Positions 2,791 to 41,911 of a DNA stretch of 41,911 nt are shown here, in pieces. The stretch is taken from the IMG/VR virus record IMGVR_UViG_3300029893_000022, positions 1-41,911 of that record; one strand, written 5' to 3'. Below the pieces are notes generated by a model. The model did not search any database. It was given only the letters and a program-made list of their open reading frames with translations, and was not told where the DNA came from. The position numbers were made by a program, and so were the translations under genes. Origin of the DNA: a virus. Numbering within the stretch: position 1 is the first letter of the stretch; each line of letters opens with the position of its first letter.

Positions 2791-2929
2791 TTTGTTCTCC
2801 TGCCCGCCTATGACCCGACGGGCGGGGTCTAGTGATTGATTGCCCATGAGCGCCGCGGCATCTCTGCCGCACCGGACTTCCACCGGTCGCCCACTCCGAG
2901 AGCGGGCGGGCCTTGCGGACTGGGAGGGG
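2791..2929 (-). ncRNA. candidate structured intercistronic RNA element, copy 2
   Basis: Starts right after the stop of gene 2930..3148. Same three-hairpin core as copy 1; the first stem carries compensatory changes (CGCCCGCUC/GAGUGGGCG with a G-U pair, plus 2888-2908) and the second keeps the stem with a GAGA tetraloop (plus 2855-2870). Confidence 0.35.
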
Positions 2930-7135: not shown

Positions 7136-7279
7136 TTACAGGTCGAAAGCCAAATCTATGGCGTGAAGATGGAGTTTGGAGAACAGCGCACGGCGTTGGG
7201 TGGGTTCATCCCGCTTGCGTTTAATATGTCCCCAGTTGCGTACCGGCAACTCCCGCCGGCAACGACTACATGTTTTCAT
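7136..7279 (-). CDS. small basic Cys-containing peptide (47 aa)
   Basis: Not in the ORF track. ATG at 7279 overlaps the methyltransferase stop (ATGA); MKTCSRCRRELPVRNWGHIKRKRDEPTQRR...; lies just downstream of repeat copy R1, whose start codon is ACG instead of ATG. Confidence 0.35.
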   Translation of the reverse strand: MKTCSRCRRELPVRNWGHIKRKRDEPTQRRALFSKLHLHAIDLAFDL

Positions 7280-8001
7280 TCTGCGCCTCTCGTTCCAGCT
7301 CGTCTATGGCGTCCTGCGGCACATGATAGCTCACGCAGCATCCACCGTCCAATGTATTCTGTGTATGCTGGTGGGATCGCTTCCGCCAGTTCGCCGCGCG
7401 TCATCCAGTTTATTCCCAATGCGCTCCGCCCGACCGCCAGCGAAAAGTTATGGCCGATAATCGTTGCCATCTTAGATGGATCACTGAAGTATTTATTGAG
7501 TCTTTCAAATCCGACTTTCTCGCGTGTGCATCCCGCAGGGTAAAAATAGATGGAAGGGCTGGTTTCGAATCGCCTGTGTCTATGTGTTTTCAGCCCAAAC
7601 ATCGTTCCACATAGTACGAGCGAATCCTTGCTCAGCCCGTCTTCTCCAACCGCTTCGACGATGTTTTCGATGATGTAGGGTTTACCAGTTGCAATCAGCG
7701 TTTTGCGAACATTCTTTATCAGGCGTGGATAGACTGTGACATCTACTATTCCCTTCATGCGACTGTATCCCTGACATGGAGGGCTGGCGTGGATGATGTC
7801 GTACTCTGACCCGTGTTCCGTCAGGTAATCCAGGGCATCGCCCTGGATGAACCTGAACGGATAGTGTGGCTGCGGATGGATGTCAATCCCTGTAATGTCT
7901 ATAATTCCCGCATGATAATAGCCCATCGCCGCGCCGCCGGCCCCGCAGAACAGATCGAGCAATCTTATTTTGTTGTTCTCTTGCCTCTCGTTCCAGCTCA
8001 T
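7276..8001 (-). CDS. DNA (cytosine-5)-methyltransferase
   Basis: Motif I DLFCGAGGAAMGY, motif IV SPPCQGYS, ENV-like IENIV; 241 aa (compact). Start codon and AGGA RBS lie inside repeat copy R2. Confidence 0.75.
   Translation of the reverse strand: MSWNERQENNKIRLLDLFCGAGGAAMGYYHAGIIDITGIDIHPQPHYPFRFIQGDALDYLTEHGSEYDIIHASPPCQGYSRMKGIVDVTVYPRLIKNVRKTLIATGKPYIIENIVEAVGEDGLSKDSLVLCGTMFGLKTHRHRRFETSPSIYFYPAGCTREKVGFERLNKYFSDPSKMATIIGHNFSLAVGRSALGINWMTRGELAEAIPPAYTEYIGRWMLRELSCAAGRHRRAGTRGAE
7285..7324 (-). repeat. conserved gene-start module, copy R1
   Basis: gcctctcgttccagctcgtctatggcgtcctgcggcacat; about 92% identical to R2 and R3; the start-codon position reads ACG. Confidence 0.8.
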
Positions 8002-8022
8002 CTATGGCATCCTGTGGCACAT
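7983..8022 (-). repeat. conserved gene-start module, copy R2 (contains the methyltransferase start)
   Basis: gcctctcgttccagctcatctatggcatcctgtggcacat; minus strand reads cacAGGAtgccatagATGAGCTGGAACGAGAG, encoding MSWNER. Confidence 0.8.
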
Positions 8023-8062
8023 TTGCTCGCGCCTATCACTCAGCTTGAGTTCCATTCAGCAA

Positions 8063-8425
8063 CTATTTGTTCGCTTCATCCTTTTCTATCATCCACTGTT
8101 TAACCTCCATCAGAAACTTGACTTCTTCTCTGGCAGCTAAGACTGCCCGATCGCGATTGTCTTCCGCGCGAAAATAGTCTTCAAACGGCGTATATTTGCA
8201 CCAGACGAAGCCTGTGTATAGCTTAACTGGACACCATTTGCATCTATCGTCAAGATACTTTGCGCAGAGCGAACACGTATTACTCCCGCCATTGTAAATG
8301 TACTCAATGGACGGGTCATTGTAGGCATCTGCGATATATTACCATTTTTGTATTGCCTGGTCAATGTCACCAGGTTCCATGTCATAAGCCACTAATTTGC
8401 TTTGTATGATGATCTCCAGCTTCAT
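8063..8425 (-). pseudogene. Cys-rich zinc-ribbon-like gene interrupted by an in-frame TAA
   Basis: AGGAGGA RBS and ATG at 8425; 28 codons, then TAA (8341-8339), then 91 in-frame codons with no start codon (YIADAYNDPSIEY...NTCSLCAKYLDDRCKWCP...) to TAG at 8065. The listed ORF 8137..8385 is an out-of-frame shadow. Confidence 0.35.
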
Positions 8426-8660
8426 TTTGATCCTCCTGTTCTCGTTCCAGCTCATCTATGGCGTCCTGTGGCACATAATAGCCATGCTCACGTAATGTCC
8501 TGAGAAACTCCGCCGTCTCGCCTGGTGTATCAAAGTCGCGGCTGTCTCCATCATAGGGGCCACCCGCAAGCCATTTAACGTGTACCACATAGACGCCGTC
8601 CGAATAGTAGCAGTACACGTCCGATCTGAAGTTATCGCTGCTAAATCTGCAGTACGCCAT
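8382..8660 (-). CDS. hypothetical protein (92 aa)
   Basis: GGAGAG RBS and ATG at 8660; 3-prime end reads through repeat R3 and overlaps the next gene. Confidence 0.5.
   Translation of the reverse strand: MAYCRFSSDNFRSDVYCYYSDGVYVVHVKWLAGGPYDGDSRDFDTPGETAEFLRTLREHGYYVPQDAIDELEREQEDQNEAGDHHTKQISGL
8441..8476 (-). repeat. conserved gene-start module, copy R3
   Basis: ctcgttccagctcatctatggcgtcctgtggcacat; its ATG (8455) is in frame with the ATG at 8425 of the Cys-rich gene, giving MSWNENRRIK-MKLEII. Confidence 0.8.
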
Positions 8661-8663
8661 CTG

Positions 8664-9011
8664 TCACTCTCCTATCAATTCCAACTGCCCACGCTCGATC
8701 ATCCTGCGGCGCCGCGTCTGCGCGGCATTGTGCCGATGATGTGCAACATCATATCGCAGATGGCATCTCTGGCACATCGCGCGTAGGTTCGACGGATCGT
8801 TGTTGTGCGTGTCGTGATCCAGATGCGCCACGGTCAGGATCACCCGCCCGCGGAATTGCTGCGCCGGTTGATGATCCATCTCCTCGCAGCGTCCACTGTG
8901 ATCTATCCCGCACTCGCCCGTGCATTCGCACTGCCCGCCGGCGCGGTCGTGTCGGATCGAGAGCGATATTTCTCGCCAGTTTTCGGGATAGTTGCGCATG
9001 TCAATCGGCAT
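8664..9011 (-). CDS. HNH endonuclease
   Basis: CECTGEC ... LTVAHLDHDTHNNDPSNLRAMCQRCHLRYD: Cys pairs flanking the H-N-H core. Confidence 0.75.
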   Translation of the reverse strand: MPIDMRNYPENWREISLSIRHDRAGGQCECTGECGIDHSGRCEEMDHQPAQQFRGRVILTVAHLDHDTHNNDPSNLRAMCQRCHLRYDVAHHRHNAAQTRRRRMIERGQLELIGE

Positions 9012-9186
9012 ATCCTGTTATTCCTCTTCTTCGCTGCCGTCAAACAACGACATCTGCTTCACATGCCCGTCCAATGGCAAACAGTGTGGGCTAAACCACA
9101 ATCGTTCTTTGGTGCGGTTCTCGCTATTTGCTGTCTTGCCATTGCTGTTGCCATAGGAACGCCCGGCAGTCCAGGAGTTTTATAAT

Positions 9187-10242
9187 CTAATGAATTGTCT
9201 TCTGTAGTGACCATCGTGATCCGTTCCGATAGACGATATTCTTCTCTGCCAGGACTTCCAGGGAGCGCATGATCGTTCCCTTATTTCGTCCTGTCACTTC
9301 CGATAGTTCTAGCAGTGTTACTCCGCCTTCGTAGCTGCGGATGATGTTTATCAGTTCGCGTTGCCCATCTGATAGTACTTCTTCCGGCTTTGCGATCTGC
9401 CAGCTTGTGGTTGTCAGGTCGAAACGCAGATCGAGCATTTGCTCCTCGATGTCGCGTCCAGAGATTGCCAGCTTTGCGCCTGTCTTCCCCGGTTCTTTAT
9501 ATAGCCCCAAGATGGTATCTGCTACCGCGCCTTTGGATGTTGATCCGATGATGTCGCTAATCGGATCGTCGTTTCCGGTGAGCAGTCCGCGTTTACGATG
9601 GTGATCTATGACGATGATAGATACACCCTCGGAAGTTGCTTCCTGGAGGGGTCCCATGACGTGTGTGACTGCGCCCATGTCGTTCCAGTCGCGGACGTGG
9701 AATGCACGGGTGAGAGTATCTATGATTAACAGGGAATAACCGGCGTCTCTTGCGAATGTTGCAAACGTGCTTGAGTTTTTGAATAGCAATTGAAAATCTC
9801 TGGAGAATACTACGTTTAGATTTCTTTGTGCCTCTGCCGTCCAGTTTTGTTTGTGTTGTCGTTCGCGGAAACGGCGTTGGCCATCTTCGAGCGCGCAGTA
9901 GAATACTTTTCCGGGCGTTACCTTGCGCCCTAGAAAGTAGCCATCCGAACAGATCGCCAGTGCCAGCTCCATTGCGAACCAGGATTTGCCTTTTTTGGGA
10001 GGTCCCGCGAGCAGTGTAAATCCGGCGGGGATGATTTCTTCCACCACCCAGGCCGATTCGGGGAATTCCATATTGTAGATTTCATCACCGCGCCATATAC
10101 GTGGCTCATATTTCGGCTTGCGCTTGGGCGCAGCTTCCGAGGCCGGCGGCTCCGGCATTGATGATTCCGGCGTCAATATCCGTTGATCGTTGCCGGATAA
10201 CCGATCAATCAGGTTTTTGAGGGAATCCATATCATCATTCAT
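9187..10242 (-). CDS. RecA-like (AAA_25/RepA-type) ATPase with C-terminal winged helix; putative replicative helicase or initiator
   Basis: Walker A LLAGPPKKGKSWFAMELA; Walker B SLLIIDTL and IIVIDHHRK; C-terminal HTH-like LLELSEVTGRNKGTIMRSLEVL. Confidence 0.7.
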   Translation of the reverse strand: MNDDMDSLKNLIDRLSGNDQRILTPESSMPEPPASEAAPKRKPKYEPRIWRGDEIYNMEFPESAWVVEEIIPAGFTLLAGPPKKGKSWFAMELALAICSDGYFLGRKVTPGKVFYCALEDGQRRFRERQHKQNWTAEAQRNLNVVFSRDFQLLFKNSSTFATFARDAGYSLLIIDTLTRAFHVRDWNDMGAVTHVMGPLQEATSEGVSIIVIDHHRKRGLLTGNDDPISDIIGSTSKGAVADTILGLYKEPGKTGAKLAISGRDIEEQMLDLRFDLTTTSWQIAKPEEVLSDGQRELINIIRSYEGGVTLLELSEVTGRNKGTIMRSLEVLAEKNIVYRNGSRWSLQKTIH

Positions 10243-10580
10243 AGCGATTCCCTCAACTCTCTTTGTAATCGGTCAAGACTGTTAAAAAAAATCCAATCTT
10301 GCTCCAATTGCATCGCAAGATTGCTTATGTCATTATAGTATTCTCTGGCTTCGATCAGCCAGATTGTTATGGTTATTTTATCTCTGGGTGATGGCTGCGC
10401 GTTGATGTCCCTGCGCAGGGCAGAGATAAATCGTCTGGCGCATTCATCTGTGAATTGATCTGGCGATAACTTATCTATCGCTGCCAATACTTCATCCGGC
10501 CACACCAGCGCGCAACCTGCCAGCATGCGCCCCAATCTGGCAATACGCTGTAGCAGAAGATCATTTATTGTTGCTGGCAT
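10239..10580 (-). CDS. hypothetical protein
   Basis: 113-aa ORF; its stop overlaps the ATPase start (ATGA). Confidence 0.5.
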   Translation of the reverse strand: MPATINDLLLQRIARLGRMLAGCALVWPDEVLAAIDKLSPDQFTDECARRFISALRRDINAQPSPRDKITITIWLIEAREYYNDISNLAMQLEQDWIFFNSLDRLQRELRESL

Positions 10581-35059: not shown

Positions 35060-35610
35060 GTCGCTCATTGTATATGGGTTACTAATTGACATGGCTTGCA
35101 CGGAGTTTTTGGGTTACTTCCATCGCTTAGCTCGCTTCTCTGTAATGGGTTACTTTGTTAGCTTGGCTCGCTTACGCTAGATGGGTTACTCCTCTCGAAT
35201 GGCTCGCTTCGTTCCGTTGGGTTACTTGCTGTGCTTGGCTCGCTTCTGCGACATGGGTCACTCAACTCATATGGCTCACTTCCTCAGTTTGGGTTACTCA
35301 CTGAGCTTGGCTCGCTTGTATATCATGGGTTACTCCTTGAGACTGGCTCGCTTGGGTAGCATGGGTTACTCATAATCGGTGGCTCGCTTCATCACCCTGG
35401 GTTACTCGCCAGCAATGGCTCGCTTACCCACTTTGGGTTACTTGCTTCGCTTGGCTCGCTTTCTTTTGATGGGTTACTTCACCCTCTTGGCTCGCTTTCT
35501 TAGCTTGGGTTACTTGCCGAGTTTGGCTCGCTTGTATATCATGGGTTACTCACTAACACTGGCTCGCTTCCGTCTTCTGGGTTACTCCGCGGTAATGGCT
35601 CGATTGGGCT
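35060..35610. repeat. tandem array A of a 36-bp dimeric repeat (18-bp half-units TGGGTTACT+N9 and TGGCTCGCTT+N8), about 15 units
   Basis: Read directly: the two cores alternate with strict 18-bp spacing; variable segments are pyrimidine-rich on the plus strand; downstream (3-prime) of minus-strand gene 35619..36311. Confidence 0.85.
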
Positions 35611-35618
35611 TGCCGAAA

Positions 35619-36311
35619 TTATATCTCATCATACCACCCAAACTCTTCCGGCGTATATAGGCGATGATGATTGTTCTCTGCCACAATCCAGGGATCGCTA
35701 ACAGGCAATCCCTCTAACTTGCGCCATACCAGCCACAGGTGCGATAACCACACTTTTATCATCTTGCGCATGGCGGCGTTATGCTTGTGCAGCTTTGTCC
35801 AATCTTCGCGGCTTTCGTACTCCTCGCGCGCCTTGTCGTAAATGTCGCGATAGGGACTGCCGGAGCGCAGGAAGGATGAACCGATCAAATAGCAGGTTGT
35901 CTTGAGGCGAATGTTGTAATGGAGTTTCTCGCCCTTGACCGGCTTCTCGCGTTCTCCGTTGATGACGGCATAACCTGCATACCGCCAAAGGGCGCTGATG
36001 GTATCGGCGCGGTGGATGTCAATCATCACCACCGTTTTCAGAGCAAGTGTCTTTCCGACGCCTCTCACGCGGCACATATATTCCACAATCGGAAAATCAT
36101 CCGCCAAATCTTTGATGGATGAATCCAGCTCATCTTCCAACAACTGGAATTTGGTCATCCACTGCTCGATATAATGGCGGTACGTTGGATTATCAGTACC
36201 GCGGTCTATTGCGGACAGGCGATTGCTGAATTGAATGCGTGCTTTCTGGATGATTCGGTCTCGCAGATCAACCAACGCACGGGCTAAAACTGAAATAGAT
36301 GGGTCTGTCAT
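35619..36311 (-). CDS. IS110-family recombinase C-terminal domain-like protein (coiled coil plus helix-hairpin-helix), lacking the N-terminal DEDD catalytic domain
   Basis: AAGGAGAG RBS and ATG at 36311; VRGVGKTLALKTVVMIDIHRADTISALWRYAGYAV and HNAAMRKMIKVWLSHLWLVWRK resemble the conserved C-terminal (Transposase_20-type) region of IS110/IS116/IS902 proteins; only 230 aa; no DEDD motifs. Confidence 0.6.
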   Translation of the reverse strand: MTDPSISVLARALVDLRDRIIQKARIQFSNRLSAIDRGTDNPTYRHYIEQWMTKFQLLEDELDSSIKDLADDFPIVEYMCRVRGVGKTLALKTVVMIDIHRADTISALWRYAGYAVINGEREKPVKGEKLHYNIRLKTTCYLIGSSFLRSGSPYRDIYDKAREEYESREDWTKLHKHNAAMRKMIKVWLSHLWLVWRKLEGLPVSDPWIVAENNHHRLYTPEEFGWYDEI

Positions 36312-36361: not shown

Positions 36362-37215
36362 TTGCTTCCCAATTCCGGCTCGCTCTCAACGAATGGACTG
36401 CTCTTCCTTAATGGCTCGCTCTTTTTATCTGGGTTTCTGCATCGAAATAGCTCGCTCCTCTCGTCTGGATTGATTGTTCATTGTGGCTCGCTTATGCTCC
36501 ATGGGTTACTTTTCGATCCTGGCTCGCTTTCCGTCTCTGGGTTACTTAGAGATGCTGGCTCGCTTGCGCGGGATGGGTTACTCACGTTGCCTGGCTCGCT
36601 TCATTATCCTGGGTTACTTGACCTTTGTGGCTCGCTTACTTGGTTTTGGTTACTCGTCAATTATGGCTCGCTTCTCGCATATGGGTTACTCCGTTATTCT
36701 GGCTCGCTTGCGCAGGTTGGGTTACTCACTGCGTATGGCTCGCTTACTTGCCATGGGTTACTCACCGCGTCTGGCTCGCTTGCATATCCTGGGTTACTCC
36801 TGAACTTTGGCTCGCTTCAGCATCGTGGGTTACTCTCCGCGTCTGGCTCGATTGCAGTAGTTGGGTTGCTTTTACAGTTCGGCTCGCTTCCCGCACGTGG
36901 GTTATGGGTTACTCATCTTCAGTGGCTCGCTTTCGGTTTCTGGGTTACTTTCGCCTACTGGCTCGCTTTCTGACTCTGGATTACTTGTATGCAATGGCTC
37001 GCTTACACATCGTGGGTTACTCTCCGTGTCTGGCTCGCTTGCATATCATGGGTTACTCCTAAACAATGAATGGCTCGCTTGCGCGGGATGGATTACTCAC
37101 GTTGCCTGGCTCGCTTCTCCAGCTTGGGTTACTCAAGTTGCCTGGCTCGCTTCGTCATCATGGGTTACTTTTCAAGGGTGGCTCGCTTTATTCATTCAGA
37201 ATGGCTCTTCCATTC
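36362..37215. repeat. tandem array B of the same 36-bp dimeric repeat, about 23 units
   Basis: Same cores and orientation as array A; includes segmental duplications (for example GGCTCGCTTGCGCGGGATGGgTTACTCACGTTGCCTGGCTCGCTT at about 36563 and 37071); upstream (5-prime) of gene 35619..36311. Confidence 0.85.
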
Positions 37216-41775: not shown

Positions 41776-41911
41776 GTTCCTCTCCTTTCATTAGTGCCTT
41801 GACCAGCCGCGGATCATAGCGGCTGTTGGGCAAGTTACGGGCTGCCCGATACAGATACTCTGGGTCGCCGATGGCGATCAGAGCCTCGATCAGCCGCGGA
41901 TCGTAGCGGTC
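41762..41911 (-). CDS. C-terminal end of a tandem-repeat protein, 5-prime part beyond the window end
   Basis: Minus-strand frame open from 41911, reading DRYDPRLIEALIAIGDPEYLYRAARNLPNSRYDPRLVKALMKGEEHGHP then TGA at 41764-41762; same frame (mod 3) as the partial gene at 1..598. Confidence 0.5.
   Translation of the reverse strand, partial: DRYDPRLIEALIAIGDPEYLYRAARNLPNSRYDPRLVKALMKGEEHGHP

Follow-up and report, generated by a model that had tools for sequence, protein, structure and literature searches.

What does a stop codon mean when the reading frame behind it continues as clean, protein-like sequence? This question is raised by positions 8063-8425 (minus strand) of the window, i.e., all 41,911 nt of the virus record IMGVR_UViG_3300029893_000022, where a cysteine-rich gene is split by an in-frame TAA. 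A first reading made from the letters of the DNA (here referred to as the sequence-only reading) had offered three options, namely, I) a recent nonsense mutation, II) a sequencing error, and III) programmed readthrough. Near-identical relatives offer the best means of interpreting a lone in-frame stop whose downstream frame is clean, and they are central to the present analysis. The locus most probably carries a nonsense allele (CAA to TAA) that is real and recent, in a cassette gene that is dispensable; translation would terminate there, and the rest of the gene would be left untranslated. The event itself, the knockout of a gene by a nonsense change, is an ordinary and already known phenomenon. 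Two by-products of the analysis may outweigh the stop codon, i.e., a large and uncatalogued cysteine-rich family with a confident predicted fold, and an exchange hotspot at a 35-58-nt junction that holds a C5-methyltransferase, a DruA-family protein, or nothing in relatives.

Layout of the interrupted gene

On the minus strand, an ATG at 8425-8423 opens 28 sense codons (MKLEIIIQSKLVAYDMEPGDIDQAIQKW; 8342-8425), which are followed by a TAA at 8341-8339. After this TAA, the frame stays open for another 91 sense codons (YIADAYNDPSIEYIYNGGSNTCSLCAKYLDDRCKWCPVKLYTGFVWCKYTPFEDYFRAEDNRDRAVLAAREEVKFLMEVKQWMIEKDEANK; 8066-8338), up to a TAG at 8065-8063. Across the stop position (X), the sequence reads QAIQKW-X-YIADAYNDPSIEYIYNGGSNTCSLCAK (...QAIQKW-X-YIADAYN...). 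The ATG is preceded, at a distance of 7 nt, by the Shine-Dalgarno sequence GGAGGA (8433-8438, minus strand), which is conserved in 5 of 5 relatives. The sequence-only reading had described a start at 8425 with a strong ribosome binding site, 28 codons, a TAA, and a 91-codon continuation in the same frame, and its coordinates were found to be exact on the minus strand. An in-frame ATG further upstream, at 8455 (MSWNENRRIK...), was rejected as the gene start because it is ACG in two relatives (L003 and L004), and 8425 is therefore taken as the real start. A frameshift was rejected as well, since both parts share one frame.

Past the stop, the only in-frame ATG, GTG, or TTG codons are two ATGs, located 15 and 9 codons before the end. 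The ORF listing contains no ORF of at least 20 aa in the frame of the gene downstream of the stop, and no Shine-Dalgarno sequence was found there either. The downstream part thus lacks its own start, just as the sequence-only reading had stated, and a separately initiated downstream gene was rejected because of this and because the protein domain spans the stop. A run of 91 open codons would arise with a probability of about (61/64)^91 = 0.013 at a GC content of 50%. Chance does not account for the open frame here, given the 99% identity of the joined sequence to an intact protein of 120 aa and its membership in a family with 740 cluster representatives. Gene callers emit an out-of-frame 82-aa ORF (8137-8385, minus strand) in the TAA-bearing assemblies L013, L015, and L016, but the 120-aa gene in L014, which carries CAA. 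This 82-aa ORF was rejected as a gene and is regarded as a gene-caller artefact, and the locus is best annotated as a pseudogene or disrupted copy of the 120-aa gene.

The protein family and its predicted fold

The joined protein has two C-x2-C motifs, CSLC (residues 51-54) and CKWC (residues 62-65), and a fifth cysteine at residue 76, all of them downstream of the stop. When 1.84 billion cluster representatives were searched exhaustively with HMMER, 740 family representatives (clustered at 50%) were obtained at E <= 1e-3 and 41 at E <= 1e-10. Family members are mostly 100-150 aa long, while some have 2-4 tandem copies of the domain and reach up to 688 aa. Motifs seen among the members (P0010-P0180) are SIxKWxxI, TCALC, CxGCPV, and TPY. 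In a 44-sequence alignment, K27, W28, C51, C54, C62, C65, C76, and P80 are invariant; the stop comes directly after the invariant Lys-Trp, and the five invariant cysteines are all encoded beyond it. The residue after KW in 186 domain instances is in most cases E (78), Q (44), K (26), or R (14), and it is a stop in none. The sequence-only reading had named a separately initiated downstream gene as the case that would speak against a split gene; the domain match begins upstream of the KW motif in 190 of the 192 family domain matches, with K27 and W28 invariant, and the answer is negative.

The AF2 model of the intact protein, with the 44-sequence alignment as input, is a single compact domain (mean pLDDT 97.5, pTM 0.90) with a beta-hairpin (residues 2-14) and five helices (residues 21-34, 52-60, 66-71, 80-86, and 91-119). 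Codon 29 falls in the middle of the first of these. In the model, the 28-aa peptide that can still be translated, ending in K27 and W28, comprises the beta-hairpin and 8 residues at the beginning of helix 1, and helices 2-5 are encoded after the stop together with the invariant cysteines. Since both the alignment and the model place the stop inside a conserved domain, neither fragment is plausible as an independent unit. The zinc-ribbon pattern that the sequence-only reading had pointed out stands in part. Both C-x2-C motifs are real and invariant, and they resemble zinc-ribbon-type modules in being a pair of such motifs, 7 residues apart, here accompanied by a fifth invariant cysteine. The predicted fold, however, is a beta-hairpin plus a helical bundle and not a zinc ribbon.

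Neither the protein nor the 44 family members matched a family in Pfam, PHROGs, or NCBIfam, and tblastn of the intact protein against 50,697 GenBank phage records returned nothing. A profile search of PDB sequences gave insignificant matches only, and the family has no significant structural neighbor. The contigs of two members (80 kb and 194 kb) carry long arrays of small unannotated genes that resemble phage early regions, and one of these two regions (L010) additionally contains genes for Lar (restriction alleviation) and for a DNMK-family protein (PF21448). The family product is putatively a metal-binding early accessory protein.

Codon 29 in close relatives

A search of the joined sequence against 5.8 billion proteins led to one cluster, whose representative (P0001) is 120 aa long, is 99% identical to the joined sequence over its full length, and has Gln at the stop position. 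A second member of the cluster (P0002, 130 aa) is the same sequence called from an upstream ATG; both differ from the window only by this Gln. A third member (P0003, 118 aa) has Lys at the same position. Five close-relative contigs keep the gene as one intact ORF of 118-120 aa (up to 130 aa as called). In the DNA alignment of the six copies, codon 29 is TAA in the window, CAA (Gln) in L001, L005, and L006, and AAA (Lys) in L003 and L004. The L003/L004 copy further shows two 3-nt indels that keep the frame, along with a few substitutions close to its ends and only synonymous changes in the cysteine core. Comparison with homologues had been suggested as a check, and its outcome here is that relatives hold a sense codon within a single uninterrupted ORF; the locus is indeed one gene split by an in-frame TAA, as had been claimed.

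The nearest relative (L001; Logan SRR29054605, a 29.6-kb contig) is collinear with positions 18428-7973 of the window at 98.7% identity. The T/C difference at 8341 is the sole difference between the two across positions 8019-10500 of the window (2.48 kb), and the remainder of the 10.4 kb that they have in common differs by approximately 1.6%. The 91-codon stretch after the stop is identical to that of the intact L001 gene. As judged from this alignment, the stop arose by a C-to-T transition on the coding strand at window position 8341 (CAA to TAA). Being the only difference from L001 in 2.48 kb, the change appears to be very recent, and this recency would explain why the downstream frame is undamaged. 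Of the options put forward earlier, the recent nonsense mutation is hence the one that the near-identical relatives, with their CAA or AAA, bear out. Two further searches returned no match, i.e., a search of GenBank phage DNA for similarity to positions 7900-8700 (distant mode) or 8000-30000 (near mode), and an exact-pattern scan of codon 29 (42 nt or 35 nt, with N at the variable base) in viral_contigs, metagenome_contigs, and genome_contigs. As for the cause of the transition, deamination of a 5-methylcytosine made by the C5-methyltransferase that is encoded next to the gene could be a candidate; the context TGG[C]AA fits no motif known to us.

Recurrence of the stop allele in other assemblies

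A single-base difference from the nearest relative, known from assemblies and not from reads, might in principle be an error of sequencing or assembly, with CAA as the true codon. The T at 8341 is, however, also present in three other assemblies, namely, L013 (NCBI GCA_020724785.1, DYGH01000004.1), L015 (Logan SRR5011275), and L016 (Logan SRR5011273), all of which match the window with 100% identity in the stretches that were compared. The four assemblies with the T come from at least two or three separate runs, and a third-party MAG is among the evidence; in addition, the site is outside any homopolymer. Consensus substitution errors are rare at normal coverage. The run accessions are neighboring, and the T-bearing assemblies may all derive from one phage population, even from one DNA preparation, so the recurrence of the T speaks for reproducibility across sequencing runs and not for independent origins. 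The presence of the T in three further assemblies nevertheless makes a random error unlikely, and the sequencing error that had been listed among the options is considered highly improbable.

Stop codon usage and the genetic code

TAG-to-Gln recoding occurs in some phages, and the Gln codon (CAA) that relatives carry at exactly codon 29 would suit a phage in which TAA is read as Gln. Against such a reassignment, TAA ends approximately 18 of the 56 crudely called ORFs of the window, 11 of them as TAAT, including large structural genes; genes of 2149, 382, and 331 aa are among those that end in TAA, and the other genes common to the window and L001 are of equal lengths. Only a single in-frame TAA was found. 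The assembly has an exact terminal overlap of 79 nt (1-79 = 41833-41911) and is therefore taken to be a complete circle; ARAGORN detected 0 tRNA genes in the whole of it, and Rfam likewise gave none. The sequence-only reading had held that TAA is a true stop elsewhere and that reassignment is unlikely, and both statements agree with these data. On the basis of stop codon usage, reassignment is effectively refuted, its probability being next to nil.

Termination or readthrough at the TAA

A full-length 120-aa protein could still be made if the TAA were passed by functional low-level or programmed readthrough, or by means of a host ochre suppressor tRNA. The fully open and intact downstream frame would fit this, as would the residues found at this position, which tolerates variation; Q and K (and E in the wider family) can be inserted by near-cognate or suppressor tRNAs. 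The recency of the mutation, however, explains the open frame equally well. The stop is found in 0 of 5 close relatives and 0 of 186 family domain instances, in contrast to what would be expected of a conserved signal, and its context (TAA followed by T, i.e., UAA-U) is that of a strong terminator, as a U at position +4 lowers stop-codon readthrough in E. coli (PMC5289835). The 131 nt of RNA downstream of the stop fold no better than shuffled sequences (z = -0.75), and the complete circular assembly contains no phage tRNA that could act as a suppressor. Moreover, relatives that have a sense codon at this position share the identical sequence downstream of it, which indicates that no readthrough signal has evolved. 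We therefore consider that readthrough or suppression very likely plays no part here. Programmed readthrough, the last of the earlier options, is without support, given a stop unique to this lineage, and the locus is in all likelihood not a case of recoding or readthrough.

Exchangeable cassettes at a conserved junction

In the window, three copies of a 35-58-nt junction repeat bound two cassettes, in the order copy, cysteine-rich gene, copy, C5-methyltransferase, copy (all minus strand). The repeat has the core GTGCCACAGGAYGCCATAGAYGAGCTGGAACGAGA and is a duplication of the 3' end of a 92-aa gene (8660-8382, minus strand). Copy 3 (8425-8482) lies within the 3' end of this gene (...YVPQDAIDELERE...) and forms the upstream boundary of the cassette with the cysteine-rich gene. 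Copy 2 (7971-8028) closes the same cassette on its downstream side and also bounds the methyltransferase cassette upstream, the latter ending at copy 1 (7273-7330).

Other arrangements are found in relatives. L007-L009 have one junction copy and no cassette. L001, L005, and L006 have a copy, the cysteine-rich gene, and a degenerate copy, after which L005 and L006 carry a gene of 363-365 aa. In the slot of the methyltransferase of the window, L001 (10387-11580, plus strand) encodes a 397-aa DruA-family protein with a full-length match to PF14236 (E = 2.2e-79). L002 has a different backbone and yet the same methyltransferase between two copies, with both junctions kept. A scan of viral_contigs with the junction repeat gave no match. 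The locus looks like a site of modular cassette exchange via recombination at the conserved junction. From the cassette layouts across L001-L009, the cysteine-rich gene is considered accessory and exchangeable, and its position in a swappable cassette, together with the lack of the gene altogether in some close relatives (L007-L009), indicates that the phage tolerates its loss.

Several side observations concern the genes at the junction. The DruA-family gene of L001 would be a member of a defense-system protein family (Druantia DruA) encoded by a phage. The C-terminus of the 92-aa protein has been rewritten by cassette insertion (...DELEREQEDQNEAGDHHTKQISGL in the window vs. ...DELEREVQNENM in the cassette-free L007-L009), and in the window its gene (8382-8660) overlaps the cysteine-rich gene by 44 nt. 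Likewise, a junction copy read in another frame encodes the last 16 residues of the methyltransferase.

Proposed course of events and selection on the allele

The following course of events is proposed. A C-to-T change at window position 8341 would have turned codon 29 of a 120-codon accessory gene into TAA. Ribosomes would start at the ATG at 8425, terminate at UAA-U, probably with high efficiency, and release a 28-residue peptide that is presumably functionless. The remaining 91 codons, with the five conserved cysteines and 4 of the 5 helices, would stay untranslated, leaving a fresh pseudogene whose downstream part has not had time to decay and hence still looks like protein-coding sequence. 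As the gene is part of a swappable accessory cassette in what would be the early/replication module, its loss would be tolerated and was probably neutral or nearly so.

Alternatively, the nonsense allele could be real but selected, if losing an early accessory protein helps the phage in its current host, e.g., through escape from a host defense that senses the protein or through removal of a toxic or incompatible function. Within a tract of 2.48 kb that otherwise matches L001 exactly, the stop is the sole substitution, and only 4.3% of the possible single substitutions in this tract (2.9% of the transitions) create a stop, although this figure of approximately 4% is not a fair test, because the case was picked for being a stop codon. 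Also in line with selection, the gene is located among swappable defense/counter-defense cassettes (the C5-methyltransferase in the window, DruA in L001), and on phage-like contigs, family members are found within rows of small early genes, in one case with a Lar gene close by. However, this is a single event, and the same data fit the neutral loss of a dispensable gene; selection for the loss is considered unlikely. It is a distinctly unlikely proposition, too, that the family protein is a target or trigger of defense or clashes with a neighboring cassette, and that the TAA marks an escape mutant that swept through the population. Recent nonsense mutation with neutral loss is the reading retained here.

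Other features of the genome

Apart from the interrupted gene, the window has further features of note. Two twister-sister ribozymes are located at 2319-2412 and 2837-2923 (both minus strand), 518 nt apart, and score 60.6 and 63 bits over the full RF02681 model (Rfam), for which the gathering score is 34 bits. A tandem array at 8-523 (87-nt unit, approximately 5.9 copies, 78% match) is situated at the assembly ends and runs over the circular junction; possible interpretations are a coding segment with internal repeats, an origin, or a packaging region. Two iteron-like arrays (35110-35602 and 36484-37188), with a 36-nt period in which TGGGTTACTC and TGGCTCGCTT alternate every ~18 nt, flank a gene of 230 aa (35619-36311, minus strand) and may be putative binding sites for a replication or partition protein.

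Comparison with known systems

The locus shares individual traits with several known systems. As in recoded phages (TAG to Gln, TGA to Trp; code 15/code 4), an in-frame stop is found where relatives have Gln. In contrast to these phages, there is a single case here, TAA is the normal terminator genome-wide, and the phage has no suppressor tRNA; phages are not known to recode TAA. The in-frame stop followed by a long, open, and protein-like extension is reminiscent of the coat/A1 readthrough of Q-beta. The prokaryotic programmed readthrough known to us, e.g., that giving the Q-beta A1 protein, uses UGA, whereas the stop at this locus is UAA-U and not in a leaky UGA context. It is, moreover, absent from all relatives, it cuts one domain rather than joining two functional units, and it has no downstream signal.

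With regard to the cassettes, lambdoid linkers and T4-type PeSL cassettes are conserved boundary sequences for modular exchange in phages, and the junction described here resembles them in that a short conserved boundary sequence recurs with different cassettes between its copies in relatives. It is unlike them in being composed of the 3' coding end of the 92-aa gene and the ribosome binding site and start region of the next gene, and not of a promoter with a stem-loop. The closest parallel to the stop codon itself is provided by classical ochre mutants and natural nonsense pseudogenes in phage accessory genes, in which a Gln codon (CAA) is likewise changed to TAA by one base, and which have in common with this locus a truncated product, an intact downstream frame, a dispensable gene, and intact orthologues. 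There is no difference in kind between them, other than that the present allele comes from metagenome assemblies and not from laboratory isolation.
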